From the NCBI GenBank assembly GCA_964639285.1, contig CAZXCI010000001.1, positions 142,305 to 206,304 on the forward strand: a stretch of 64,000 nucleotides of DNA, in the 5' to 3' direction. The position numbers and the translations under genes were made by a program. The stretch's first letter is position 1. Each line of letters begins with the position of its first letter. The notes beneath the pieces are model-generated. The model was not told the DNA's origin, made no database searches, and saw only the letters and a program-made list of their open reading frames with translations. Below, piece by piece: positions 1 to 58,464 of the stretch. The stretch comes from an uncultured Candidatus Saccharibacteria bacterium (lineage in GTDB: Bacteria > Patescibacteriota > Minisyncoccia > Phycocordibacterales > XYD1-FULL-46-19).

Positions 1-88
1 GCCAAATCCGGTGAAGATTAATAAAATCCCAATAATACCAAAAGCGACCGAGGCATAAATAAATGTGAGTGTAGCTATTCTCTGCATA
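1..88 (-). CDS. partial small membrane protein; N-terminal 29 aa (MQRIATLTFIYASVAFGIIGILLIF...), ORF runs off the window start
   Basis: ATG at 86-88 on the minus strand, hydrophobic translation with no stop before the window edge; follows ORF 97..285 in the same orientation. Confidence 0.25.
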
Positions 89-96
89 TAATTGTA

Positions 97-285
97 TTAA
101 CTAAAATAAATAAGGTAACCAATAAAGAGTGCTAAGATAATATACCAAGCTGTCCAACCTTTGGTGAGAGGCAGGTAACGTTTGAAAAACTTAATATTAT
201 TCCAATAATCTCGATTGCCACACCAAGCAATATAACCAGCAACTAAACTGTCGATTATTAGAAGCCAAAAAATAATTTGTAACAT
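97..285 (-). CDS. hypothetical small membrane protein (62 aa)
   Basis: ORF track; two predicted hydrophobic helices; no recognisable family. Confidence 0.3.
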   Translation of the reverse strand: MLQIIFWLLIIDSLVAGYIAWCGNRDYWNNIKFFKRYLPLTKGWTAWYIILALFIGYLIYFS

Positions 286-369
286 AATTAAAATATTCTG
301 ATTAAGCTAATAGGCCTCGACTCGTCTAATTGTAGCATAACTTGAGCAGAGTCCATCAATTGGGATAAA

Positions 370-405
370 AAGAAAACCGCCTCCAACGGTTTTCGTTGTG
401 GGCGG
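370..405 (-). terminator. putative intrinsic terminator downstream of ORF 409..603
   Basis: minus-strand GC hairpin TCCGCC...GGCGG followed by TTTTCTTTTTAT. Confidence 0.45.
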
Positions 406-408
406 ATT

Positions 409-603
409 TTACCCAAAGAAAAGATTTCGAAAGGTGCCATTAAGGGGGATAATTCTCCCTCCTATTTGGTGGCAATGTTCCCGGTCTTGGGGTTCTTTGT
501 CTGGGTTGGGGCAGAGCCCTTCCATTTTCAGACTCTCTTGGTTCTTGCTTAAAGAGGTCACCTTGAGACACTTTAAACAATCAGGTATGTTAGTGTTCAC
601 CAT
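409..603 (-). CDS. hypothetical small Cys/His-containing protein (64 aa)
   Basis: ORF preceded by a strong SD (AAGGAGGG about 8 nt upstream of ATG) and followed by a hairpin plus T-tract; has CxxC and HCH motifs. Confidence 0.45.
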   Translation of the reverse strand: MVNTNIPDCLKCLKVTSLSKNQESLKMEGLCPNPDKEPQDREHCHQIGGRIIPLNGTFRNLFFG

Positions 604-1410
604 TTTCTCTCCCTCCTTCTGGGGCTTAGGTTTTATTCTCTAAAAAAGAAAAACACTCTGTTTTCATTTCTACCATATTTGCCACCGGGAAACAACAAAG
701 ATAAGTAATTTTAAAATAAGGTTTGTTATAGAATAGGGCATATGAAGAAAGCCCTCATAATTTTAGTTGTATTTATTGTTTTGTTGTTTGTCCCACTAAT
801 TTCTCAAAAAGCTCCTGTTGTTTGTGTCAAAGCGCCGTGCCCAGAATATGTGGTCTTCCACATTTCGATTTTTGAGTATATTGCCTCTACGTATTTTAAT
901 TGACGAAGCTCTCACTTGTTCAAGAATGAAAGGATTGAATACAAATAGCAGCTCTGGAGGGGTTAGAGATCATCTTTCTACTCCCTAGAAATGGACATGA
1001 ACATTGCCGTCAGCCTTCTTTTAAAATCTTCATTGGGAGAAAGATGTTCAATAATGCCCTGACTTCTTCCGACCTCTTCATACCCTTTATTGTCTATCGG
1101 ATGATTTGAACCAGTTACATGGTTTAAGAATACCAGCATTGCTTCTTGTCTCTTATTTAATTTTGAGCCCTCCTTGTCTTCGGAAGGATTGATCCCTTCT
1201 AAGTTCATATTTATTCAAATTATTTTATCAGCAACATTAATAATAGGTTAATTATAGCAAAATATGAACAGAAAAAGAAGAAAGGCTGTCCGAACCTGGA
1301 TAGGGGAGAACGAAGGCCTTTATTTTTTGTTGTTGGGGTAAAAAGAAAATCCCGCACTTAGACATTTTAGCTAATTCGAAAGCTTTCTAAGGTTATGCTA
1401 AAATAGCTCT

Positions 1411-1896
1411 GTGATTAAAACCAATATTTATATTGACGGCAATAATTTATATCGTGGGGCCAAAGAGCTTGGGTTTGAGATTGATTATAAAAAATTTTAT
1501 GGTTGGCTTCGGCAAAAATATGGCTCAGATAATATTTATCTTTTTGTCGGCTTAGTCCCAACCAGAACCAAATTTTACGAACATCTCCAAGAATGTGGTT
1601 TCATTTTAATTTTCAAACAAACTGTTTCGGTTGGGGGAGTGGTCAAGGGGAATTGCGACGCCGAACTGGTGTTAAAAACTGTTTCTGATTTTTATACTAA
1701 AGCATTTGATAAATGCATTCTAGTTTCTGGTGACGGCGATTTTGGTTGCCTGGTAGAATTTTTAGACGATAACTCTGTTTTGGATCGAATCATTTCTCCT
1801 GATGAAAATAAATGTTCAATTTTACTAAGAAACAAAAATACCGAGATTACTTTTCTCAATGAACATTACCATAAGTTTTCTCGAAAATCGCCTTAA
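1411..1896 (+). CDS. NYN-domain (LabA/DUF88-like) PIN-fold putative ribonuclease, GTG start
   Basis: motifs IDGNNLY, NCDAELV and SGDGDF are typical of NYN/LabA-like domains. Confidence 0.65.
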   Translation: MIKTNIYIDGNNLYRGAKELGFEIDYKKFYGWLRQKYGSDNIYLFVGLVPTRTKFYEHLQECGFILIFKQTVSVGGVVKGNCDAELVLKTVSDFYTKAFDKCILVSGDGDFGCLVEFLDDNSVLDRIISPDENKCSILLRNKNTEITFLNEHYHKFSRKSP

Positions 1897-2087
1897 ACCC
1901 TAACCCTAAAAGAAAAAGCCCCCGATGCAGACGTATCTACATAAGGGTCTCTTTCATAGTTATACTAATATAGTATACTTTTTATACAAATTGTCAATTT
2001 GTTCTAATTGGGCTCCGATGCTTGTTTTTGTCGCTTAAGAGCGAAGAAGGAGAGAGAAAACTAGAACTTATATGTAATTGAAAAATT

Positions 2088-3104
2088 TTAATATTTGCGT
2101 TTCTTAAGTTCTTTCTTGGCTGTTTTCATAAACTTTCCAAAGTCACGATCTTTTTCTCTTTTTTCAAGTTTATTCATTTCAAAATATTCAGCTTCCTTTT
2201 TTAGACTAATATAATTAGAATAGTGAGCTTTGTTTAATCTGCCCAAATCTAGAGCCGCTAATACTGCGCACCCAGATTCTTGGACATGGGTACAATCTTT
2301 ATATCTACATCTCTCTGCTAAGCTGGCTATCTCATCAAAGAAGTAATTTATCCCAACAAGATTGCCAGTCATCCCAACTTCGCGCATTCCGGGGTTATCT
2401 ATCACAATTCCTCCATTTTCTAAAAAATACATCTCTCTTTTTGTTGTGACATGTCTACCTCTGGTAGAGTGGGCTGAGATGTCTTCGGTTCTCAAGATGT
2501 TCTTCCCAAGCAATCTATTAATCAACGATGATTTGCCAACGCCAGACGAGCCGAGGAAACAATAGGTCTGGTCTTTTAAAATATGTTTTTTAAGATCATT
2601 TAAATCATTATCATCTATGATACTCGTTAGGATAACCTCTGTATTTTTAAACCTATTTTTTATTTGAGACAGAATTAGATCTAATTCTTCTTGAGAAATT
2701 AAATCGATTTTATTTAACACAATGGCTGTCTCAACCCCCCCATCATTAGCAAGAGCAAAATATCTTTCAAATCGATTGAGATTGAAGTCTCGATCAACCG
2801 ATTCAACGACGAAGGCTTTATCGATATTTGTCGCGATAATCTGCGATTCATTTTTATTATTGCTTTTTCTTTTTAGCATTGTCCTTCTTGGTAAAACTTT
2901 CTGAATCACGGCATTTTCTTGATCAGCCATACTAATAGCCACCCAGTCACCGACAGCTGGATAGTCCTCTCTAGATAGAGACTCAAACATTTGCTTTCCT
3001 GTTATTTTAGCAAAATATTCTCCAGACAAATTTTTTACCTTATAGGCTCCTCTATATTCAGCGACCACTCGCGCCTTTGTTGTTTCATTATTTGTTCTAT
3101 TCAT
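2088..3104 (-). CDS. rsgA: ribosome small-subunit-dependent GTPase A (RsgA/YjeQ)
   Basis: circularly permuted GTPase order NKID (G4) - GSSGVGKSS (G1) - DNPG (G3); N-terminal OB region; C-terminal Zn finger CRYKDCTHVQESGC. Confidence 0.85.
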   Translation of the reverse strand: MNRTNNETTKARVVAEYRGAYKVKNLSGEYFAKITGKQMFESLSREDYPAVGDWVAISMADQENAVIQKVLPRRTMLKRKSNNKNESQIIATNIDKAFVVESVDRDFNLNRFERYFALANDGGVETAIVLNKIDLISQEELDLILSQIKNRFKNTEVILTSIIDDNDLNDLKKHILKDQTYCFLGSSGVGKSSLINRLLGKNILRTEDISAHSTRGRHVTTKREMYFLENGGIVIDNPGMREVGMTGNLVGINYFFDEIASLAERCRYKDCTHVQESGCAVLAALDLGRLNKAHYSNYISLKKEAEYFEMNKLEKREKDRDFGKFMKTAKKELKKRKY

Positions 3105-3185
3105 TCATGGTCAATATACCAAAAATTCCTCAGAGGTTCTACGTCATATTAAGGGTATACAAAAAAGTCATGGCTTTTTAGTGCA

Positions 3186-3388
3186 AAAAGAAAAGCACCA
3201 GTGAAGCAATTCTTCCATAAGCGAATGCTTATGAGTGGGCGGTGTGAACAAGGCCTTGGGCGACCAAAACTTGCTCATGGGCCATTCGCTCGCCACTACT
3301 AGGCCCCCACAACTGGTGCTTTGGCTAACTCTCGTGCTCTAGGCACAGGGCAGGGGTAGCCATGTCCCCACCCGACTGACACCCACAT
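3186..3388 (-). ncRNA. candidate structured non-coding RNA (GC-rich island, class unassigned)
   Basis: roughly 200-nt GC-rich block in AT-rich intergenic DNA. A perfect 10-bp helix (3194-3203 with 3312-3321) encloses a domain with nested perfect helices (gcgaatg/cattcgc, atgag/ctcat, GGGG-N9-CCCC). On the minus strand a TTGACT -35 box lies upstream and TTCTTTTT follows the closing helix. Strand is tentative. Confidence 0.35.
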
Positions 3389-3423
3389 TAGTTTTTATTT
3401 TTTAAAAAGTCAAACAGCAAACC

Positions 3424-3443
3424 CCCTACCAGCTGGTAGGGGG
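3424..3443 (-). terminator. intrinsic terminator of ORF 3454..3849
   Basis: perfect 8-bp stem CCCCTACC-AGCT-GGTAGGGG directly after the stop, followed on the minus strand by a T-rich run. Confidence 0.6.
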
Positions 3444-3453
3444 TAAAATCACA

Positions 3454-3849
3454 TCAAAAAATTCCGCATTCCGCTGCACACTGGCTCGAACAGTATGGGG
3501 AATAATTTCCGGAAAAAAATTGGCAATTGCATCTTGGACAGATTCCTCCCGTCGACGGCACCTCTCCTTTTTTGTGATGGGGTAAAAATCCAGAGAGAAC
3601 CTGAATTTCTACATCAATCTCCAGTGCCTCGTTTAAGGCCGAGGCAATCTTCGCGGCTTCTTCCCCGTCGGTATCACGGACAACGAGATAAGGTGAGTCT
3701 CGATGTTGTTCCGACATATCAAGGCAACAGAGATCTGGACTGAAAGTAATTACTCCCTCGTCTGCCTTTATCCCCAGATCAGTCACAATTTTCGAGATTT
3801 CACTACAGATACCAATTGAACTATGACCGACGATAACTATGTTGGGCAT
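3454..3849 (-). CDS. hypothetical protein with C-terminal zinc-ribbon (CPRCNC...C...CAAEC)
   Basis: ORF track; small alpha/beta-like N-terminal region plus a Cys cluster; own terminator. Confidence 0.5.
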   Translation of the reverse strand: MPNIVIVGHSSIGICSEISKIVTDLGIKADEGVITFSPDLCCLDMSEQHRDSPYLVVRDTDGEEAAKIASALNEALEIDVEIQVLSGFLPHHKKGEVPSTGGICPRCNCQFFSGNYSPYCSSQCAAECGIF

Positions 3850-4033
3850 AAAATCACCTCCTTTCTGAGGTTAAAAAGTCTAGTTCTCGATACAAAAAAC
3901 TTCCGTCTATATTTCTGACAGATTATATACAATTAATCAATAGTTGCTAGTATTTTGCTAGCGTTAGGCTCTGATGCCTGTCCTCTGTCGCTTTAGAGCG
4001 AAGGGGGGTGGAAGGAAGTTAGAACTTGTCTCT

Positions 4034-4555
4034 TTAACTTGAAAATTCAATAGCCAGGCCTTTGGCATAACGAAAACGGCCAAGAAATTTGATAAGGGAG
4101 AGAGCAATGTCATATTTTGTCCCTTCTGAATTCTTGCCAATTTCTAACTCGTCGATCTTTATACTGTGTTTGTCAGTCATAATGGATAATGTTCCAGAAC
4201 GTTCTTTTTCCACAATGGAGTTTAGAATCTTTTTCTCCTTGTCAGTTAGATGCATCTTGCTAACTAATTCGCTGTATTCGAAGACAGAGTTTTCATATTC
4301 TCCACGTTCAGTGACAAGATCTGCCACTTGATTCAAAGCTAAGCCTTGATCAAAAAGCTGTTTAATATTTTTGGCTAGTTCTTTAGCTTTCTGGTTGATT
4401 TCACCGCCAATTTCCTCGGCCGAAACACCAAGGGCTAAGAGGTAAGAAATTTGAAGGTCAGAACCGCTAATCTTGTTGGCAATGACAAAATCTCTTAGTT
4501 GAGCAATTGATTCTTGTCCGTTTTGGTGTTCTTCAAATCTAATTATTGATTCCAT
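4034..4555 (-). CDS. hypothetical acidic protein (173 aa), member of the cassette-like array
   Basis: ORF track; conserved promoter motif TTTTTGATATAATT upstream; conserved 3' flank element downstream. Confidence 0.5.
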   Translation of the reverse strand: MESIIRFEEHQNGQESIAQLRDFVIANKISGSDLQISYLLALGVSAEEIGGEINQKAKELAKNIKQLFDQGLALNQVADLVTERGEYENSVFEYSELVSKMHLTDKEKKILNSIVEKERSGTLSIMTDKHSIKIDELEIGKNSEGTKYDIALSLIKFLGRFRYAKGLAIEFSS

Positions 4556-4627
4556 TTTTTATTATTTTTAACTTATCAACTTTTGTAATAATTAAATTAT
4601 ATCAAAAATCTCTCAACGATTCTATGT

Positions 4628-4664
4628 CCCTGCCCGCATTGCTATGCAAAGCGTTGCAGGCGGG
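4628..4664. repeat. GC-rich hairpin element 'core A' (CCCTGCCCGC-N18-GCAGGCGGG), copy 1
   Basis: 37-nt sequence identical to 8028..8064, inserted into different flanking repeat backgrounds; related copy in reverse orientation at 44402..44428. Confidence 0.6.
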
Positions 4665-5116
4665 CTACGAGAGGTAGCCAAAAACACGTTGTAAAATAAA
4701 GAGAAAAAATAGGTTCCGATGAATAGAAAAAGTTTTTACTACTTTTGTGTAGAGATGATTTTACTATCATTAATTACTTCAATTGCTTTAAAATTAAACT
4801 GGTTATTATAAACCCAAACCCCGATAAGATAGAAGCAATATCATAAGATAAGATACTTCCATTATCAATGATATTTATTAACCCATTGAATATTAAAAGA
4901 CCGGCGATAATAAATAATAAAATAATGAATAGTTTGTTCATTTATATTTTATCTAAAACTTATATAATTATATTTTGCCACAATCTCTTAAAAAATTCGA
5001 GTGTCTTATTTGAAAGAGGGATACAAAATAACCCCCGCTTTAAGGGCTATTTTAGTCTGCTAGCAAAATGCTAGCAATGGCTCCGTTGGGTAGAGAGAGT
5101 TGGAACCTATTTTGTC

Positions 5117-5983
5117 TTATTCAGACGATAAAGTCGGGGTCGAGCCATTATCAAAAACGGTGATCTTTGTCGACTTGCTAATTATATCTGTAGGGCCAGT
5201 AATTCCTAGATCATTAAGTTTAAAGTCTTTGACCGTAATACTATTACCAATCAATGTCGCTCGAATAGTTCTATTTTTTGAACCGGCATCAACCTCAGCT
5301 CTAAGAGCAATATCTACCCATTTATCTTTGAAAAATCCAATGTAGAATTGTTTAAAATGAAAATCAATCCTGCCTGATTCTGAAATCATATCAGTATCTA
5401 ATATTGAGACCCCAGGCTGATCGTCAACAATCTCTATCTTAAAGTTGCGAAATAAATCGGGATCGTAATTTTCAACGTTAAAACTCAAAGTGTGAAGCAT
5501 AATATCCTGATGTGGCCTTAAACTGAAGTTTCCCAAAATGATATTGTTACCCGTTGGGGATATTTTAAAAGTTTGAGTCGGCTCCTGATTTGGACTTAGT
5601 CGTGTATCTACTATAACTAAATTGGTGGCGCTTTCATTTGAAGCGTCGACCGAACTTGTTTGAATCATTGGTTTCTGATCTAAAACTTTAGGAGTTGTTT
5701 CTTTTTTTTCAGCACTATTCTTCTTTTGAGAATAGGTCTCTGTTTGATCTATGTCTTGAGGTGTTTCTGTGGGATTCCTTAAATCTTGATCTATGGGTTC
5801 CTTAACCTTTGTCTGTTGACTTTTTGATCCTATCGCTGGGGTAGTAGAGGCAATAGGAAAAATTTTTCCTTTGAAGAAAAAACTTGAGAAGATATTCCAA
5901 GAAAGGGGATTCCACCAAGAGGCATTAGTTAAAAAGGGGATAGAAACAATTAATAAAAGGAAAATTATTGATATCTTTTTCAT
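5117..5983 (-). CDS. hypothetical secreted protein (288 aa, signal peptide)
   Basis: N-terminal MKKISIIFLLLIVSIPFLTNA signal-like segment; conserved promoter and 3' flank elements. Confidence 0.55.
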   Translation of the reverse strand: MKKISIIFLLLIVSIPFLTNASWWNPLSWNIFSSFFFKGKIFPIASTTPAIGSKSQQTKVKEPIDQDLRNPTETPQDIDQTETYSQKKNSAEKKETTPKVLDQKPMIQTSSVDASNESATNLVIVDTRLSPNQEPTQTFKISPTGNNIILGNFSLRPHQDIMLHTLSFNVENYDPDLFRNFKIEIVDDQPGVSILDTDMISESGRIDFHFKQFYIGFFKDKWVDIALRAEVDAGSKNRTIRATLIGNSITVKDFKLNDLGITGPTDIISKSTKITVFDNGSTPTLSSE

Positions 5984-6087
5984 ATCATTGAATTATATCA
6001 AAAGTCTTTAACCCTATCTAGGTGTCTGCTAGCAAAAAGCTAGCAATTGCTCCGTTGGGTGGAGGAAGTTAGAAATTCTTTGACGAC

Positions 6088-6609
6088 CTAATTACCCACA
6101 GAAACTTTTATCGTACTTGAGATCACGCACTCATGTGATTCATCGAACGGTGTGCTTAAAATTGGGGAACATTTGTCTGTATCCCAGACCTTAAAAAGCA
6201 AGGTGTAATCATATGGTTTAAGATAGGCATAGGTGTGACTGAAAGAAATAGGTTTTGATTGATCATAGAGAACAGAAAAAGGGCCCTCAATACCATCTTC
6301 GCCTTCACCTCCCCACTCGATCTGATATTTTAAATTTGCCCCAGTTGGTGCCGTGATATTTGCTGTCCACTTGCCAGTCTCACCAATTTTAAGTGAGGTG
6401 GGCCCAGAGATAGAATCTATTGATAATTGAACAACCTTTTCGTCAACAATAGTATTGTCATCATTTTCTTTTAGTGAATTATCAGAAGAACTGTCGACTA
6501 GTTCATTGGGTGTAGTAGATTTTTCGTCGCTGACCTTTTTAAATACAAAATAATAAACTCCGCCGACAATCAAAATCAAAGTAACAACTCCAATTAAATA
6601 TTTTTTCAT
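6088..6609 (-). CDS. hypothetical secreted or membrane-anchored protein (173 aa)
   Basis: N-terminal TM/signal segment; promoter GATTTTTGATATAATT upstream; 3' flank element downstream. Confidence 0.55.
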   Translation of the reverse strand: MKKYLIGVVTLILIVGGVYYFVFKKVSDEKSTTPNELVDSSSDNSLKENDDNTIVDEKVVQLSIDSISGPTSLKIGETGKWTANITAPTGANLKYQIEWGGEGEDGIEGPFSVLYDQSKPISFSHTYAYLKPYDYTLLFKVWDTDKCSPILSTPFDESHECVISSTIKVSVGN

Positions 6610-6892
6610 TTTAATTTTTACTATTTAATAATTGGCTTAATTATATCAAAAATCCTCTAGCGATTCTACATCCTATTCGGGGTCACCAAAAAACATATTG
6701 TAAAATAACAAGAAAAAATTGGCTCGCTTGGCAGTCTGCGTTTCGAACTTATGATTGGAGTATGGCCATAGGCGATCTTAAGACAACAACCAAGGAAATC
6801 AACTATTTATTGTCTTTAGTTTGATTATACTCTCGGTAGGGGTGGGGTACCCCCAGATATTTGGTTCCATGTTTTGTATATAAACAACAAAC

Positions 6893-6952
6893 CCGCCTCG
6901 CTCACACGACGACTTGGGTTTGTCGCGGTGTTCGCGGGCGGGGCTAGTCTAC
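6893..6952 (-). terminator. terminator-like GC hairpin repeat (paralogue of 8165..8217) overlapping the stop of ORF 6944..7231
   Basis: AAACCCGCC...GGCGGGGCT hairpin followed on the minus strand by TTTGTTGTTTAT; same element about 1.3 kb away. Confidence 0.5.
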
Positions 6953-7231
6953 GTCAGGGGATTTTGGCTGAGAGAACTCCTCAAAAAGACCGATCGCTAC
7001 AAAACACAAAAAGAGGAACGCGAACCCCAAGACGTAAGGCAAAGGGTCTGTCACCCCACTGAGGGGTAAGAGCATCCCTAAGAGAAAACCGACGAGAAGA
7101 TTCTCTTTGAGCCCCATCTCCCAGGGGTTCTTCGGCTGTTTCCTCTTTATGTAGCTCACCACAAGGCAAGCGATAAGAGAAAGAATAATGTAGCCAAGAG
7201 CGGACAAGAGGTGGACGAAGATAATGTTCAT
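6944..7231 (-). CDS. hypothetical small membrane protein (95 aa)
   Basis: ORF track; three hydrophobic segments; the last two codons and stop (V-D-stop) lie inside the repeated terminator element. Confidence 0.4.
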   Translation of the reverse strand: MNIIFVHLLSALGYIILSLIACLVVSYIKRKQPKNPWEMGLKENLLVGFLLGMLLPLSGVTDPLPYVLGFAFLFLCFVAIGLFEEFSQPKSPDVD

Positions 7232-7456
7232 TTGGTATATCCTTTTCTGTTGAGGAACGTTTCAATGTCTAATTTGATCATAGCACTTACAATGTACTTT
7301 GTCAATATCTTAAATTTAATTTTAAGTTCGGACGTTCTTTTCGGGGTACAAAAATAACTCTTGTTTTAAGGGCTTCAATTTGCACTTCTGCCTGCCGGCC
7401 TCAGTGTCTTCCTTGTCTCCACTCGTTGAGCTCCGATGGGCAGAGGAGGTCCGAAC

Positions 7457-7990
7457 TTATTTTTTATAAAAACTATTATCAGATGCCGTAATCTGTATCA
7501 ACGCATTTCGAAGTGATTCTTCGAGACTGACCTCTCTTAAGATTGCTCCCCCAGAATATGTCCCCCAAGTATCATTTGGAAGTTTTCCAAATTCTTCCTC
7601 AATTAAATGCATAACATCACAGTGCTCCATTTTAAGTTCGTTCATTTTCTGGAGAATATAATCGGGTACCTTTAAACCGCTTGAGTATCCATAGAATTCC
7701 TTTCCATTTTTATCAATTATGGCTGTCCAAGCTTCCTCGTAAATATGTCCATAACGCTCAATTAGGCCACTTTCAAGCCCAATAAAAAAGTCAGCACCAG
7801 GCTCAGTGTTCTTAGCACCTAACGCTCGATTTCTTGATCCGTCGTAGGTTTGTTTATCGTAAGGGGTATCTGGTACTTTTGAATCTGAAGGACAACCCTC
7901 AACAGACACTGGCCCAGTGAATAATTGACTCACGACTTTTTGAGTAATTAAAATTTTTCTATCACTGGTTGAACCAAGAATAATTCTCAT
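7457..7990 (-). CDS. yjjX: non-canonical purine NTP pyrophosphatase, YjjX/DUF84 family (inosine/xanthosine triphosphatase)
   Basis: VSVEGCPSDSKVPDTPY...GSRNRALGA...ADFFIGLESG matches the YjjX signature block (AVESGVPEQPFG...GARNRV...ADFWVAIEAG). Confidence 0.7.
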   Translation of the reverse strand: MRIILGSTSDRKILITQKVVSQLFTGPVSVEGCPSDSKVPDTPYDKQTYDGSRNRALGAKNTEPGADFFIGLESGLIERYGHIYEEAWTAIIDKNGKEFYGYSSGLKVPDYILQKMNELKMEHCDVMHLIEEEFGKLPNDTWGTYSGGAILREVSLEESLRNALIQITASDNSFYKK

Positions 7991-8027
7991 GGCGTAATTC
8001 TATCAAATTTCGAATTAAAGTTCGAAC

Positions 8028-8064
8028 GTCCCTGCCCGCATTGCTATGCAAAGCGTTGCAGGCG
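8028..8064. repeat. GC-rich hairpin element 'core A', copy 2
   Basis: identical 37-mer to 4628..4664. Confidence 0.6.
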
Positions 8065-8164
8065 GGTCTACTCGGGGTACAAAAACAACCCTTATTTTAA
8101 GGGCTATTTTCACGAGCTCCGATGGATACATAAAGTTCGAACCACACTTATCTTTTCATAAACA

Positions 8165-8217
8165 ACAAACCCGCCTCACAACTGACAGCGGGTTGCTGTG
8201 GTTGTGGGCGGGGCTAG
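8165..8217 (-). terminator. terminator-like GC hairpin repeat (paralogue of 6893..6952) overlapping the stop of ORF 8214..8525
   Basis: AAACCCGCC...GGGCGGGGCTAGTCGAC; supplies the V-D-stop end of the upstream ORF. Confidence 0.5.
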
Positions 8218-8525
8218 TCGACAAGCGACCAGTCGATTTTGGCGAAGATGTCTTTGGTATCATACTCGCCATTTCCGCACATCATCAGGAAGAACGGAAG
8301 GAGGCTGGTGAGTTTCTCGGGATCGGCTTCGACCGTCTGGATGAACAATGTGCGTGTCAGGCAGGTATAACTCCCGTCACTGGAACCGGTGTACTTGCCA
8401 CTTGGCACGTGCACAGCCCTAACGAGTTCACCCCTGATTTCCTCTCGGCGTTCTTTCGAACAAGTCGGCGAGGAAGCCTCGATAACGAGATTCTTGATTG
8501 TTTGCTGGGACAACTTGCTAGCCAT
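8214..8525 (-). CDS. hypothetical protein (103 aa), second gene of a GC-richer two-gene module
   Basis: ORF track; about 50 % GC versus about 36 % in the neighbouring cassette genes; start overlaps the end of 8518..8841 by 8 nt. Confidence 0.4.
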   Translation of the reverse strand: MASKLSQQTIKNLVIEASSPTCSKERREEIRGELVRAVHVPSGKYTGSSDGSYTCLTRTLFIQTVEADPEKLTSLLPFFLMMCGNGEYDTKDIFAKIDWSLVD

Positions 8526-8841
8526 GACACATTTCCTTCTTGTCGGTTAAGCCAAGAAAGCCCAGCAATTTCTCGCGCCGTCTCTCGTCTTTAGCCAACA
8601 GTTCACGATCGTACGAGATGATCTGACGACGATGGTCGTGACGATCTAGCTCGAACTCCGATCCGTAGTCAACGGCACTGTCGTGGATCGAATTGTTCAA
8701 CCTCTCGCCGTGTTCAATCTCTTTGGTAAGCGTGGCAATTTGCCGATCCAAGAAAGCAAGTTCTTTTTGCCACTTGGCTCTCCTCCGTTCCTTCCACCTC
8801 TCAATCCAAACACGAAGAAACCACATCTTTCTATCCTCCAT
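8518..8841 (-). CDS. hypothetical charged/coiled-coil protein (107 aa)
   Basis: ORF track; Arg/Glu-rich; overlapping arrangement with 8214..8525. Confidence 0.4.
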   Translation of the reverse strand: MEDRKMWFLRVWIERWKERRRAKWQKELAFLDRQIATLTKEIEHGERLNNSIHDSAVDYGSEFELDRHDHRRQIISYDRELLAKDERRREKLLGFLGLTDKKEMCHG

Positions 8842-8920
8842 GGGTTAGACTCCAGTTTTCAACACAAAAACACTCTATCTATAATGTTAGCATATATAGA
8901 TAAATATGTCAATACCTTGC

Positions 8921-8992
8921 TCCGCGGGTAGGACTCGAACCTACGACCAACCCGTTAACAGCGGGCCGCTCTACCAACTGAGCTACCGCGGA
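8921..8992 (-). tRNA. tRNA-Asn (anticodon GTT)
   Basis: cloverleaf from the reverse complement: acceptor UCCGCGG/CCGCGGA, D-arm GCUC..GAGC, anticodon stem-loop GCCCG-CUGUUAA-CGGGU (U33, GUU, A37), T-arm GUAGG-UUCGAGU-CCUAC; CCA not encoded. Confidence 0.9.
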
Positions 8993-9061
8993 ATCTATAA
9001 ATTCTAAATGAACACGGCCTTCCAATTGAGGCTCCTAAATTTTAACAAAAATAATACAAAA

Positions 9062-9075
9062 TGCAATATTGCATA
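9062..9075 (+). promoter_or_regulatory. perfect 14-bp palindrome ATGCAATATTGCAT overlapping the extended -10 (TGCATAAT) of the ECF sigma gene
   Basis: read directly from the sequence; operator-like position. Confidence 0.35.
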
Positions 9076-9095
9076 ATTTGTGATTAAATGATCCA

Positions 9096-9641
9096 ATGGA
9101 AAAAAAGGAAGAATTGACGATTGAGAGGATTGTCAAAGAGTATCTAGCAATAATTTACCGTTTTGCCTATCGCTTGACGGGGGACGAAGCTGACGCCAGG
9201 GACATTGCTCAGGAGGTAATGGTGAAGGTCTGGAAGAATTTAGATAGGTTCGACGAGAATCAGGGCTTCAAGCCCTGGCTCTTCAAAATTGCTCGAAATA
9301 CGGCTATTGATTGGCTTAGGCGACGCCGGCAAATTCCTTTTAGTCAACTAGCTTCTACTGACGAAGAGGGGAATCAAAAAGATTTTTCTGAAAATATTGC
9401 CGACTTGGAATTATTACCGGACGAGATTTTTGCTCAGTCGGAGGTTAAGGAAAAGTTCAAACAGGCTCTTGGGGCGGTCCCCTTAGCCGAGAGAGAAATT
9501 CTCGTTCTTCATTTAGAAGAGGGGTTAACTTTTGATGAAATCTCTAAGATCGTAAAACGGCCTCTTAACACGGTGAAGAGTATTTACCGGCGATCTCTCT
9601 TTAGGTTGAGGGCCCTCTTGGTTGAAATTGCACCAAAATAG
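9096..9641 (+). CDS. RNA polymerase sigma-70 factor, ECF subfamily
   Basis: region 2 (ARDIAQEVMVKVWKNLDRFD...FKPWLFKIARNTAIDWLRRRR) and region 4 HTH (LAEREILVLHLEEGLTFDEISKIV). Confidence 0.85.
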   Translation: MEKKEELTIERIVKEYLAIIYRFAYRLTGDEADARDIAQEVMVKVWKNLDRFDENQGFKPWLFKIARNTAIDWLRRRRQIPFSQLASTDEEGNQKDFSENIADLELLPDEIFAQSEVKEKFKQALGAVPLAEREILVLHLEEGLTFDEISKIVKRPLNTVKSIYRRSLFRLRALLVEIAPK

Positions 9642-9674
9642 CGCTAATCGGCGTATCTAAAAAATAAGAGGTTT

Positions 9675-10085
9675 ATGAGCAAGAATATCAAACAATTATT
9701 TGAAATTACCCAGATTTCCGCTCCCGGGGCTGATTTGGAAGCAAGGGTTTTTTCTCGTATCGAAAAAGAAAAAAAGTTCTTGGCTCGTCGTAGCCTCTTG
9801 ATTTTTACCTTGGCTGATGTCTTGTCGGGGGCTGGTTTGGTCTTGTCTTTTTCCTATTTATTCAAATTGTTGGCAACTTCTGGATTCTATCATTATGCCT
9901 CTTTGTTCTGGTCGGACTTGGGGACGGCGAGTCTTTATTGGCAGGAGCTACTCTTGTCATTGGTTGAATCATTGCCAATGTTGGGGGTCATCGCTTTCTT
10001 GATGGTTACGCTAGTTTTAATTTTTTCTTTAGCCAAAACTGTTTCAAATTTTAAATTATTTTATTATCAAGTTAATCCTGTTTAG
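9675..10085 (+). CDS. putative membrane anti-sigma factor (136 aa)
   Basis: located immediately downstream of the ECF sigma gene; cytoplasmic N-terminus then TM helices; no sequence signature. Confidence 0.4.
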   Translation: MSKNIKQLFEITQISAPGADLEARVFSRIEKEKKFLARRSLLIFTLADVLSGAGLVLSFSYLFKLLATSGFYHYASLFWSDLGTASLYWQELLLSLVESLPMLGVIAFLMVTLVLIFSLAKTVSNFKLFYYQVNPV

Positions 10086-44460: not shown

Positions 44461-45540
44461 ATGAAAAAAGTCTTATTTTTATTGTTTATATTGCTTAGTC
44501 CGGCTATTTTGGAGGCTAAGACCTTAGAATTTTCGGCTTGGGTGCCATATTGGAAGAAGACGGCGGCGGTAGCTGAAACTCAAGTTAATCTTACAAAATT
44601 ATCAACCATCATGCCCTTCGCTTATGAGGTTAAGTCTGATGGAACGATTTGGGATCCGATGAAAATTACCAAAGAACCTTGGTCAGCGATGATTGCCTCG
44701 GCTCGCGCTAATAAGGTGAAGATTTTACCATCTATTTTGTGGATTGATGGTGAGGCGATGGAGAAGGTTCTTGGGACGAAGAAGTCTCGCGATGCTCATG
44801 TTAAGCAAATTGTCGATTTGGTTAGAGGTAATAATTTCGATGGTATTGATATTGATTATGAGGGGAAAAAAGTTGAGAGTTTTCGTACTTTCTCCGCTTT
44901 TATCAGTAGTCTCTCTATTGCTTTGCACAAAGATCCTGGCCAGACAGGTAAGAAAATCTTATCTTGTACTATCGAACCACGTCTTCCTCCGACTTCGCGC
45001 TTTCTTAAGATCCCGGAGATAATTATGTATGCCAATGATTATGTTAGGATCAATAAATATTGCGATGAAATAAGAATCATGGCCTACGACCAGATGACTG
45101 TTGATGTCCTCTTAAATAAAAGTAAGAGGTCACTGGGCCATTATATCCCTGTGGCGGACATTGATTTTGTGAAGAAGGTCATCACTTATGCTAGTTACCA
45201 AATTTCACCCGCCAAGATTATTCTTGGAGTGGCCAATTATGGTTATGCATACCAGGTGATAGACAAAGGAACTTTTTATGATTATAAAAAATTAAGAGCT
45301 TTAAGTTATAAAACCTTTATGGACTTAGCTAAGAGCACTGGTTCAATTCCCGTGCGCGGAGCCTCAGGTGAGTTAAATTTTGTCTACCAGAAAGAGGGGG
45401 AGACTCGTTTTGCCACTCTATCTGACTCGGTGGCGATTGCCTCGAAAGTAGAATTAGCTAAGACCCTTGGCCTCAAAGGTGTGGCCCTTTTCAAAGTAGA
45501 TGGTGAAAGTGATCCAAATTTGTGGGAGGTTTTGAAGTAA
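44461..45540 (+). CDS. glycoside hydrolase family 18 (chitinase-like) secreted protein
   Basis: signal peptide; catalytic DGIDIDYE (DxxDxDxE) motif. Confidence 0.75.
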   Translation: MKKVLFLLFILLSPAILEAKTLEFSAWVPYWKKTAAVAETQVNLTKLSTIMPFAYEVKSDGTIWDPMKITKEPWSAMIASARANKVKILPSILWIDGEAMEKVLGTKKSRDAHVKQIVDLVRGNNFDGIDIDYEGKKVESFRTFSAFISSLSIALHKDPGQTGKKILSCTIEPRLPPTSRFLKIPEIIMYANDYVRINKYCDEIRIMAYDQMTVDVLLNKSKRSLGHYIPVADIDFVKKVITYASYQISPAKIILGVANYGYAYQVIDKGTFYDYKKLRALSYKTFMDLAKSTGSIPVRGASGELNFVYQKEGETRFATLSDSVAIASKVELAKTLGLKGVALFKVDGESDPNLWEVLK

Positions 45541-57107: not shown

Positions 57108-57204
57108 GCTCTTATTCTACCATAGGGCGAAACTTAAAAGAAAAGCCCCAAAATCGCATAATTACCAGCAATTTGGGGACAAAAAGTGTACAAGCTGTTT
57201 CCAT

Positions 57205-58464
57205 TTAGGCTAATTTAAGCCCCAAAACTTGGTCGAATTTGCTGATGAGGTCGAGCTTTTGGGCGGGGGAGAGATCTTTGGCTGAGAGTACAGATTGAAG
57301 TGAGGCGAGGGCGGAGGCGGTGTTGAGAGAGGAGATTTTTGTGGTGAAGTTGGAGAGAAAAATTTCTTGAGCTTCCCGAGGAGAGACCTCGGCCTGCCCG
57401 CAATGCTTTGTAACGCAAGGCAGGCGGGGCTCACTAGAGGACTCACCTCCGGAAGCTTGGGCTTCGTCGGCAATTTGGGCAATTTTCTTCTTCAAATTAT
57501 CATAACCCTTCTGGGCGGCTTCGAGGGACTCCCAAGTAAAATTAACTTTTTGTTTGTAATTTGTCTGGAGGAGAAGGTAACGGTAGGCGAGGGGATTGTA
57601 GCCCTTTTTCTCTAAATCTTCTAAGGTAAAAATATTGCCTAAAGATTTGCTCATCTTTTTGTTGTCGACAAGGATGTGCTCGGAGTGGAGCCAAGTCTCG
57701 ACAAATTTGTGACCAGTGAGCGCCTCACTCTGAGCAATCTCGTTGGTATGGTGGGGGAAAATTAAATCGACACCACCGGTATGGATATCGGTCACCTCGC
57801 CTTTGAAGGCGATCTCGTTGATCGCCGAGCACTCAATATGCCAACCGGGCCGGCCTTCGCCTAAGACGGGATGGGGCCAGAAGATGTTGGCGTCACCTAC
57901 TTCGTGCGCCTTCCAAAGAGCAAAATCGCTCAAATTATCTTTCTCATACTCGTCTACCTTAACCCGCGCCCCAATCTTCTTCCCCTCTAAGAATTTCTCC
58001 CCAACTAGTTCACCATAATGGCCAAAGTCTTGTTGGTATTTCTCGATGTTGAAGTAGGTGCTCCCGTCCTCAGCCTTATAAGCATAGCCTTTATCAATTA
58101 GTTTAACGATGAAGTTTTGAATTTGGGGAATAACGTCGCTAACCTTAAGAAGTTCTATCTCAGAAACAGAGACATTTAATTTTTCTAAATCTTGGAGAAA
58201 TATCTTAGTGTATCTCTCTGTATATTTTTTTAAATCCTCCGTCCCAGTTTCTTGGCCAAATTCTTCGATAGTGTTACGAATAGTTTTGTCGTCAATGTCG
58301 GTGATGTTCATTGCCCATTTAGGGCTTCGTCCTTCAAATTTTTTGGACCGAAAGACAAGATCGGCGAAAACGTAAGATCGCAGATTGCCAATATGGGCCA
58401 TATTATAAACGGTTGGCCCGCAGGTGTATAAGTTGAGAGCAGATTTTTGGGGGTTTAGATCCAT
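57205..58464 (-). CDS. cysS: cysteine--tRNA ligase
   Basis: HIGN and KMSKS motifs; N-terminal CGPTVY. Confidence 0.9.
   Translation of the reverse strand: MDLNPQKSALNLYTCGPTVYNMAHIGNLRSYVFADLVFRSKKFEGRSPKWAMNITDIDDKTIRNTIEEFGQETGTEDLKKYTERYTKIFLQDLEKLNVSVSEIELLKVSDVIPQIQNFIVKLIDKGYAYKAEDGSTYFNIEKYQQDFGHYGELVGEKFLEGKKIGARVKVDEYEKDNLSDFALWKAHEVGDANIFWPHPVLGEGRPGWHIECSAINEIAFKGEVTDIHTGGVDLIFPHHTNEIAQSEALTGHKFVETWLHSEHILVDNKKMSKSLGNIFTLEDLEKKGYNPLAYRYLLLQTNYKQKVNFTWESLEAAQKGYDNLKKKIAQIADEAQASGGESSSEPRLPCVTKHCGQAEVSPREAQEIFLSNFTTKISSLNTASALASLQSVLSAKDLSPAQKLDLISKFDQVLGLKLA

Follow-up and report, generated by a model that had tools for sequence, protein, structure and literature searches.

Here we describe the first 9 kb of a 64,000-nucleotide stretch (referred to below as the window) of contig CAZXCI010000001.1, positions 142,305 to 206,304, from an uncultured Candidatus Saccharibacteria bacterium. 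A row of small gene units on the minus strand extends here from the 3' end of a tRNA-Asn(GTT) gene. Our analysis suggests that the locus is probably an accretion array at a site-specific integration hotspot of elements that encode large serine recombinases (LSRs) and target tRNA-Asn. The tRNA-Asn 3' end is predicted to provide the left half-site (attB type) and to anchor the array, and the 27-nt element that closes the units is a putative recombination site related to that tRNA end, which the first-pass annotation of the window had recorded as a conserved 3' element without recognising it as such. Sites of this kind exist in other genomes as well, share one orientation, are anchored at tRNA-Asn and coincide with genomic breakpoints directly after GAGC; both empty and occupied states are found, and LSR genes adjoin the sites.

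A 27-nt element recurs on one strand downstream of tRNA-Asn

The element has the form GTTC-N19-GAGC and typically reads aaacaGGTTCTAACTTCCTCTAYCCAWCGGAGC (consensus of 38 sites). There are five clean and three degenerate copies in the window, all on the minus strand and downstream of tRNA-Asn (Table 1). In good agreement with the earlier claim that a conserved element follows the stop codons, TTCNNAYNYNNTNNRYCCAWCGGAGC has four matches where 0.02 would be expected, all of them on the minus strand within 5080-8141. No member of the family was found in the remaining 55 kb (9-64 kb), even with two mismatches allowed, and a search with a hidden Markov model (HMM) of the site agrees. Together with its A2 variant (6722-6748), the strict GTTC-N19-GAGC pattern catches four sites, and the copy at 6049-6075 starts with TTTC; two stray matches in coding sequence (14835, 34845) are close to the chance expectation. 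The sites fall into the subfamilies A, A2 and GTTCTGAAC...GGGAGC.

The element resembles the 3' end of tRNA-Asn, which has the form GTTC-N14-GAGC, with the distal motif of the element lying 5 bp further out. In a hand alignment of the two, the likeness comprises CTACCC(G/AA)CGGAGC plus GGTTC. Rfam recognises only two tRNAs at the gathering threshold, and nothing at the sites even at E <= 10. A 22-nt string resembling the tRNA 3' end in its B-type form, GTTCAATTCCCGTGCGCGGAGC, also occurs at 45341-45362 on the plus strand, within a GH18 gene, and is probably there by chance.

Breakpoints between genomes lie directly after GAGC

An identical YjjX protein led us to L085, a 32.6-kb contig of a different species from an unrelated sequencing project (L numbers denote loci compared with the window). 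Window positions 8922-6717 match L085:9069-11274 with 99.9% identity over 2206 bp, and the rest of the window matches this contig only in short stretches of 76-91% identity (blastn), with at most ~80-86% for the remainder of L085. At the left breakpoint the window has the tRNA end ...CGCGGAGC (longer, ...CCTACCCGCGGAGC) joined to AAGGTATTGACA; in L085 the same AAGGTATTGACA follows ...CCAAGCGAGC (longer, ...GTTCGAAATGCAGACTGCCAAGCGAGC), with an A2-type 27-nt site replacing the tRNA. The right breakpoint lies after GTTCGAAACGCAGACTGCCAAGCGAGC in both sequences, which then diverge, and both breakpoints are thus placed directly after GAGC. Since the k-mers that span the window/L085 junctions could not be built from a window-like genome, an assembly chimera appears unlikely. 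The comparison provides direct evidence, at the level of sequence, that a portion of the array has crossed species boundaries, and the 99.9% identity of this four-gene block points to a recent transfer. In the window, the tRNA joined to AAGGTATTGACA would be an intact target, and the corresponding junction is occupied in L085, where an 80%-identical copy of a ~150-nt element and the A2 site precede the shared block at the end of an LSR element. This conserved ~150-nt element (ATGGAACCAAATATCTGGGGGTACCCCACCCC...TTTCCTTGGTTGTTGTCTTAAGATC...) stands before an A2-type site both in the window (6749-6874) and in L085 (8922-9045), and may serve as an accessory part of attP or encode a small RNA.

Empty and occupied states are also represented by L109/L070 and L113, respectively, which have the same tRNA-Asn and downstream units, with ~8.8 kb extra in L113. 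The attB of L109/L070 reads ...GTCCAGTCCGCGGAGCAAA joined to ACTTGACAAG. The attL of L113 shares this left side and continues with GAGTCATTACC, that is, the tRNA joined to GAGTCATT before an insert led by a 504-aa LSR, and its attR is a 27-nt site, AGTTCTGAACGCGTCCAGTTCAGGGAGCAAA, joined to ACTTGACAAG. Comparison of attB, attL and attR places the exchange within GGAGCAAA, and the reconstructed attP of L113 is CAATAGTTCTGAACGCGTCCAGTTCAGGGAGCAAAGAGTCATTACCCACC. A third such pair is formed by L116/L054 and L156, in which one and the same sequence follows a partial tRNA-Asn in the former and an A2-type 27-nt site in the latter. At the head of the array in L116 (10120-10177, equivalent to L054:6590-6648) we observed a tRNA-Asn-like 3' half (…GTAAGCGATTGGTCGTAGGTTCGAATCCTACCCGCGGAGC) in the B-type position, which ARAGORN does not call.

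Further comparisons concern the sites themselves. L130 and L163 differ by a 2.26-kb insert that lies exactly between GGAGC and TGACGAAA and is closed by its own site; L121 and L163 share a block with sites at either end; and L077 and L099 share a single ~340-nt unit with 94% identity between differing neighbours. A strain variant (L001, 99.6% identical) leaves the window at 6052, at the end of the unit d site, and has an A2-like site instead. The crossover is narrowed by these sequences to GGAGC(AAA).

We compared synteny around tRNA-Asn, as the first-pass annotation had proposed. In L008, the RsgA of which is 74% identical to that of the window, an operon of extracytoplasmic function (ECF) sigma factor and ABC genes, tRNA-Asn, a slot of variable content and rsgA follow each other in the window's order. 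In L008 the slot (7573-9829) contains, on the opposite strand, an AbiEii module of 2.6 kb and no 27-nt sites; such modules belong to the type IV toxin-antitoxin or abortive-infection class. In L005, the region upstream of rsgA is occupied by another array of small genes, in which at least nine sites are present. The flanks are therefore conserved and the content is not, which argues against a region that is simply syntenic and conserved in all relatives.

Large serine recombinases are encoded at the junctions

LSRs of 504 and 537 aa (Resolvase, Recombinase and Zn_ribbon_recom domains) are encoded in L113 and L147 on the opposite strand, with their 3' ends overlapping the tRNA-Asn 3' end, and in L155 the 3' end of the gene for a 552-aa LSR (Resolvase and Recombinase) overlaps a 27-nt site. 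C-terminal LSR remnants adjoin sites in L099, L130, L148 and L082. The L085 element starts with an LSR gene, next to which Prim-Pol is encoded, and extends to the A2 site before the shared block; a search for its far end via the 107-aa protein yielded one 963-nt contig only. The LSRs found at these junctions are mutually only 23-35% identical. The recombinase missing from the window is most likely the LSR of elements that occupy the same site in other genomes, and a small HTH_17 protein in L113 is a candidate recombination directionality factor.

In the attB of serine integrases (LI), the motif for the zinc-ribbon domain is 5 bp nearer to the centre than it is in attP (PMC3783163). In three divergent site subfamilies the distal GTTC(K)AA motif lies 27 nt from GAGC, compared with 22 nt in the tRNA, and this spacing fits the attP/attB half-site rule of LSRs as far as the left arm, the only one assessed, is concerned. 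Sites followed by LSR remnants contain a dyad, TACCC-N16-GGGTA (read by eye), that is centred on the observed breakpoint between GGAGC and C.

Note that in the integrated L113 (60-90) and L147 (78-118) the LSR frames continue into the tRNA-Asn T-arm, read as its complement, and end in the C-terminal tails ...LLRGLDSNQ and ...LLRRQDSNLRPID, each directly before the stop codon. As the frames enter the tRNA complement, the C-terminus would differ between the free and the integrated forms.

Sites in other genomes are co-oriented and anchored at tRNA-Asn

A scan of species-representative genomes with the site pattern returned 74 stretches. About half of these are chance matches in coding sequence (ABC-transporter Walker A), and ~28 are from metagenome-assembled genomes (MAGs) labelled Vogel-, Zambryski-, Pacei-, "Sacchari-" or Parcubacteria. 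A metagenome scan added another 76 stretches, and running the site HMM across all fetched DNA gave 95 loci with a strong site. In each of the 29 loci with at least two sites, all sites lie on a single strand (29/29), spaced 0.35-1.5 kb apart and reaching 7-9 sites per 8 kb (L030, L058, L005/L118). The site-bearing loci contain 29 tRNA genes, 15 of which are tRNA-Asn, and in 15/15 cases the tRNA-Asn is upstream of the sites and co-oriented with them. This association is not circular, since the search pattern is unable to match the tRNA itself.

Beyond GAGC the sites differ. Among 178 non-redundant sites, the right flanks fall into recurrent classes that are freely combined with the site variants: a TTGACA promoter ~5 nt past the site, an AT-rich promoter module, terminator hairpins and a GCTAGC hairpin.

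The array consists of eight units with mosaic spacers

The window has a GC content of ~43%, and from 9.1 kb on it consists of tightly packed housekeeping operons, mostly on the plus strand. The first 9 kb differ in having long spacers and, as annotated before, ten open reading frames (ORFs) within 2088-8841 that are all on the minus strand, along with tRNA-Asn(GTT) on the same strand, the position of which is confirmed by ARAGORN and Rfam (71 bits). The adjacency of array and tRNA noted earlier holds, with the difference that the array begins, rather than ends, at the tRNA 3' end; from there it runs beyond the left edge of the region originally delimited (3454-8992), up to the site after rsgA.

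Table 1. Features of the tRNA-Asn-anchored array and its repeats in the window, from the tRNA outward
Feature	Coordinates	Strand	Contents
tRNA-Asn(GTT)	8919..8992	-	3' end GTTCGAGTCCTACCCGCGGAGC (8940-8919, GTTC-N14-GAGC)
Mobile block (units a, b, c)	6717..8922	-	four genes; recurs in L085
Unit a	8116..8918	-	promoter TTGACA(8912-8907)-17-TAACAT; ORFs 8518-8841 (107 aa) and 8214-8525 (103 aa); terminator T1 ~8158-8213; 27-nt site 8116-8142; GC 48.5%; no Pfam, PHROG or PADLOC match
Unit b	7430..8115	-	hairpin B 8067-8105; hairpin C 8028-8066; extended -10 7996-8007; leaderless yjjX/NTPase_I-T 7457-7990; 27-nt site 7430-7456
Unit c	6722..7429	-	hairpin B 7336-7374; TTGACA-17-TATGAT promoter; 95-aa membrane ORF 6944-7231; terminator T1 6880-6952; ~150-nt conserved element 6749-6874; A2-type 27-nt site 6722-6748
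Unit d	6049..6721	-	AT-rich promoter module, extended -10 6639-6650; 173-aa ORF 6088-6609 with N-terminal anchor; site 6049-6075 (TTTC variant)
Unit e	5080..6048	-	GCTAGC hairpin 6024-6046; extended -10 5991-6002; 288-aa ORF 5117-5983 with signal peptide; 27-nt site 5080-5106
Unit f	4713..5079	-	GCTAGC hairpin 5055-5077; terminator B 5010-5048; 55-aa membrane ORF 4774-4941; truncated site TTTCTATTCATCGGAAC (4713-4729); GC 27%
Unit g	3968..4712	-	promoter module including hairpin C 4626-4664, extended -10 4595-4606; 173-aa ORF 4034-4555; 58-nt site variant 3968-4025 with hairpin insert CTTCGCTCTAAAGCGACAG
Segment h	2012..3967	-	131-aa Cys-rich ORF 3454-3849; GC-rich 350-nt spacer 3105-3453; rsgA 2088-3104 with conserved promoter module; 56-nt site variant 2012-2067 with the same hairpin insert
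Degenerate site copies	4713-4729, 3968-4025, 2012-2067	-	last two with a common hairpin insert
Repeat C	4626-4664 and 8028-8066		39-nt exact duplicate
Short -10-to-ATG regions	7991-8007, 5984-6002, 3105-3125, 57108-57125		

A modular accessory locus beside tRNA-Asn, each unit of which is closed by one 3' element family, was proposed in the first-pass annotation and is supported by this layout. The observation as a whole was partly confirmed and its interpretation partly supported, and the mechanism that we favour is a different one. The low GC content of ~36% given for 3454-8992 is incorrect: the value is 40.1%, compared with 43.5% for the rest of the window, and single units range from 27% to 48.5%. 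The description of the products as mostly secreted was likewise overstated and, when worded as secreted or surface proteins, fits under half of them: about four of the nine non-RsgA products have an N-terminal hydrophobic signal or anchor, namely those of the ORFs listed at 4774, 5117, 6088 and 6944 (read off the translations). Pfam recognises three products, RsgA, NTPase_I-T/YjjX and, on the opposite strand at 1411-1896, NYN; the remaining array products have no match in Pfam, PHROGs or PADLOC. The nearest RsgA proteins are from Paceibacterota/Parcubacteria MAGs, which assigns the organism to the Patescibacteria.

The spacers contain several repeat families, as was noted earlier; we count at least five beside the 3' element, among them terminator hairpin B, hairpin C, the GCTAGC hairpin, terminator T1 and a ~70-nt promoter module, and self-BLAST and repeat finding show that they are restricted to 2000-8222. 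Read on the minus strand, the spacers are mosaics in which a conserved block directly behind the stop codon or terminator (GTTCNAAC...CCAWCGGAGC) is combined with hairpins and a promoter. Single-sequence folding identifies hairpins B and T1 as intrinsic terminators and C and GCTAGC as plain palindromes. The site region of unit g at 3964-4003 resembles 2008-2046 (self-BLAST), and in L005, too, a site follows rsgA plus one ORF, with none in L008.

As claimed, the block TTTGATATAATT is present, with at most one mismatch, upstream of the ORFs 4034-4555, 5117-5983, 6088-6609 and yjjX, and it has eight such matches in the window, where chance would account for 0.99. Its extended -10 core, TGnTAnAAT, is not specific to the array: it also precedes dnaB, a penicillin-binding protein (PBP) gene, hpf, a cupin gene and others. 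The shared block thus represents the ordinary promoter type of the organism, and the idea of one regulatory logic for the array does not stand. Elsewhere in the window the core often lies 15-19 nt ahead of the ATG, and this spacing suggests that many mRNAs of this organism may be leaderless. For yjjX, the 288-aa ORF, rsgA and dnaB, only 6-10 nt separate the end of the -10 box from the ATG, without a Shine-Dalgarno sequence, which likewise suggests that leaderless translation may be widespread. The promoter module in its longer form (...CAACGTGTTTTT..GGTACCCC..GGACGTAGAACCGC..GATTTTTGGTATAAT) is a genuine repeat that also precedes rsgA both in the window and in the relatives L005 and L008.

Several side observations concern the repeats and the outer end of the array. 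The two exact 39-nt copies of hairpin C (GTCCCTGCCCGCATTGCTATGCAAAGCGTTGCAGGCGGG) lie 3.4 kb apart, and a stretch with 79% similarity is found inside the cysteinyl-tRNA synthetase gene (57393-57440). Logan contigs of the same strain break within this hairpin, L083-87 starting at 8057 and L002/L003 at 4655. The unrelated ORFs 6944-7231 and 8214-8525 both finish with ...GAC TAG CCCCGCCC, which means that the T1 terminator family (6880-6952, 8158-8222) overlaps their last codons and stop; it looks as though the terminator module had supplied the gene ends. The 350-nt spacer between the 131-aa ORF and rsgA is strongly GC-rich amid AT-rich surroundings and looks as if it could fold, with no Rfam match and no conservation upstream of rsgA in L005 or L008. 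Beyond rsgA (window 1-2087; L001:4281-6500) lie the NYN gene and several ORFs of 53-76 aa. This stretch, which precedes conserved genes for a 135-aa protein, a sigma factor and a 130-aa protein, is ~2.2 kb long in the window compared with ~0.7 kb in L005, and the difference suggests that a second variable slot flanks rsgA.

Discussion

In the mechanism that we propose, attB would be formed by the tRNA-Asn 3' end and the DNA just after it and would be the target of mutually divergent, LSR-encoding elements of Patescibacteria. The left arm of the element's attP would be a 27-nt tRNA-Asn look-alike, GTTC-N19-GAGC, with its distal motif 5 bp further from the crossover, and strand exchange would take place at or directly past GGAGC. 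Every insertion would leave a 27-nt P-arm at the distal end of the inserted DNA. Insertion would occur repeatedly, beside the tRNA or beside an older site, after which the core with the recombinase would be excised or would decay, a step for which we take the LSR remnants as evidence. The outcome would be a one-directional row of cargo units, each with its own promoter and terminator and with a 27-nt scar at the end. Excision via a more distal scar would pick up neighbouring units and deliver them to another genome, which would explain why units a-c of the window stand behind an LSR element in another species. Since the window row (eight units, from 8918 to 2012) is without a recombinase, it could be remodelled only in trans. 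The junctions point to the LSR as the acting enzyme; the order of events as given here, and the movement of single units on their own, are likewise what we infer from the arrangement of the loci.

Several observations weigh against this mechanism. Canonical LSRs recombine attP with attB only, so that insertions beside a P-type 27-nt site (L130, L155) would need either a relaxed rule or another history, for example deletion between direct repeats. A Pfam scan of the 60 window ORFs identified no recombinase, integrase or transposase, in line with the first-pass annotation. LSRs are also few, with three full genes and four remnants among ~95 site-bearing loci, and two loci (L092/L093 and L094) encode LSR homologues with 55-66% identity to the L085 enzyme in the absence of sites or tRNA-Asn, which makes the link between LSR and site a lineage-specific one. 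The right half-sites show little conservation or symmetry. Neither a circular form nor a free attP was found; among viral contigs, searches for the site pattern, for the A2 site and for two LSR proteins returned nothing or chance matches in coding sequence. Because the site HMM fails to detect the tRNA 3' end, common descent of the two rests on a short hand alignment. Finally, all of the evidence comes from metagenome assemblies.

Among the other explanations, homologous or slipped recombination between the 27-34-nt repeats, or transformation with flanking homology, would leave the repeats conserved on some other account and would dispense with a dedicated recombinase altogether, which agrees with the lack of such a gene in the window. 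Furthermore, the sites flanking the insert in L130/L163 differ at 2 of 27 positions, and deletion between such direct repeats would yield the same junctions. However, the left partners differ in sequence in three independent pairs, a 22-nt tRNA end standing against a 27-nt site, and the bases that they have in common at the breakpoint, GAGC and a few more, are too few to allow homologous exchange. The LSR genes are placed exactly at the junctions, and the 5-bp spacing difference fits LSR geometry; we therefore regard this explanation as improbable. Slightly less probable still is a lineage-wide intergenic architecture or a mosaic repeat akin to miniature inverted-repeat transposable elements (MITEs) or BOX elements, that is, a terminator plus an outward promoter between short inverted ends (GGTTCTA...TAGAACC) that has no role in moving genes. 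The spacers are indeed mosaics of modules, the unit 8008-8150 folds well (z = -5.3) with the closing stem GGUUCGAAC/GUUCGAACU, the extended -10 is generic in this genome, and the promoter module precedes rsgA as well. Such a repeat would nevertheless not be expected to keep to one strand in every multi-site locus, to be tied to tRNA-Asn in 15/15 cases and to be absent from 55 kb of the window. The blocks of identity begin and end at GAGC and not at the supposed inverted ends; the supposed right end, TAGAAC, is missing from most sites, the right flanks of which are heterogeneous, and where present it is placed as a promoter -35 (17 nt from TATRAT, by our own reading). No target-site duplication is seen at the junctions.

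Could the site act as RNA, that is, as a tRNA-like signal for processing, stability or termination in the 3' untranslated region? The window sites directly follow stop codons or terminators on the transcribed strand, they resemble a tRNA T-arm plus acceptor end, and a small CUCY/GGAG hairpin is possible, but this hairpin is lost in the CTTTATGTATCC subfamily, positions 14, 16 and 20 vary in all combinations without a sign of covariation, and Rfam has no match at the E-value given above (E = 10). The units of other arrays carry genes on either strand, and an RNA function would leave the breakpoints after GAGC and the LSR link unexplained, all of which renders it very unlikely. We give least credence to an integron or a cluster of attC sites lacking integron-integrases (CALIN), in which IntI would have assembled cassettes and would now be encoded elsewhere or lost. 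The short, co-directional, often single-gene units with a conserved site at each end and no integrase nearby are reminiscent of such arrays. However, the 27-nt site (38-site consensus) is not an imperfect palindrome and lacks the R''(RYYYAAC)...R'(GTTRRRY) arrangement, its conserved ends being GGTTC... and ...GGAGC; the crossover lies after GAGC and not inside GTT; the units have promoters of their own that match the TTGACA-17-TATAAT or extended -10 consensus; and the recombinases at the junctions are serine and not tyrosine enzymes, with no IntI in the window. Three further candidates were set aside: a structured RNA or ribozyme (Rfam is empty at the repeats, which fold mostly into terminator hairpins), a Xer/dif-like 11-6-11 site (the arms are not inverted repeats, with 3/11 matches by hand) and a tycheposon, the definition of which calls for a lineage-specific tyrosine recombinase and hallmark genes, the enzymes linked to the sites here being LSRs.

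The accretion of LSR elements at tRNA-Asn that we favour has counterparts in several known systems. In staphylococcal cassette chromosome (SCC) elements, Ccr large serine recombinases act at the 3' end of rlmH, and recombinase-less pseudo-SCC units lie between direct repeats. Set side by side, the two cases have in common serine-recombinase elements at the 3' end of one conserved gene, tandem units with short direct repeats, recombinase-less units that are presumed to be mobile in trans, and the potential of alternative-repeat excision to move composite blocks. They differ in phylum, in target gene and site sequence and in the size of the units, which are far smaller here (0.35-2 kb, often a single gene). 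The cis-mobilisable elements (CIMEs) known from accretion-mobilisation of streptococcal integrative and conjugative elements (ICEs) use a tyrosine integrase and the fda 3' end and are much larger; they are similar in consisting of recombinase-less, att-flanked modules that accrete in tandem and can be moved in cis with a neighbouring element. With the LSR systems LI, phiC31 and Bxb1 the loci share a crossover confined to a few bases, an element-side distal motif 5 bp further out and, outside the window, an enzyme of Resolvase, Recombinase and Zn-ribbon domains encoded beside the attachment site. Here, however, the predicted target is a tRNA-Asn 3' end mimicked by the P-arm, there are many tandem P-arm scars, and some insertions lie beside a P-type site, which is forbidden canonically. 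Integrons and CALINs likewise consist of one-directional small units that end in a recombination site, and the tRNA would correspond to a fixed attI-like entry point; unlike them, the present arrays show no IntI, attC structure or R boxes, have their own promoters and terminators and are linked to serine enzymes. The tycheposon islands of Prochlorococcus are tRNA-adjacent as well, in streamlined genomes where newcomers push older elements inward (bioRxiv 10.1101/2020.12.28.424599), and they contain scattered partial tRNAs and degraded elements, some of the elements having an LSR with a replication module (compare LSR and Prim-Pol in L085). Tycheposons use seven tRNAs and have a lineage-specific tyrosine recombinase in 910/937 elements (bioRxiv 10.1101/2020.12.28.424599), whereas here all linked enzymes seen are LSRs, tRNA-Asn alone is used, and the repeats, rather than plain partial tRNAs, are copies of a distinct 27-nt arm that is kept across several candidate Patescibacteria lineages.

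A literature search of incomplete coverage yielded no account of arrays of this kind or of LSR elements specific for tRNA-Asn in Patescibacteria, and nothing linking these bacteria to integrons, tRNA-anchored islands or serine recombinases; the array type seems to have gone undescribed in the group so far. The routes of gene flow and the mobile elements of Patescibacteria (candidate phyla radiation, CPR), with their tiny genomes and largely uncultured members, are poorly charted. The signature of tRNA-Asn followed by co-oriented GTTC-N19-GAGC sites marks a hotspot of accessory genes in several candidate lineages of the phylum, and it should help to annotate strain-variable regions and to explain the assembly breaks found there. 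That divergent LSRs (23-35% identity) share one target design bears on how attP and attB are told apart by these enzymes and on the search for integrases for genome engineering. Finally, our findings raise the question of whether serine recombinases perform integron-like capture of single genes. A bolder version of the mechanism, which we consider possible yet rather doubtful, would have Patescibacteria operate an LSR-run platform in which tRNA-Asn is the analogue of attI and the 27-nt arm that of attC, and in which single promoter-bearing genes would be cut out, passed between species and put back one by one by recombinases acting in trans, including by recombination of P with P sites.

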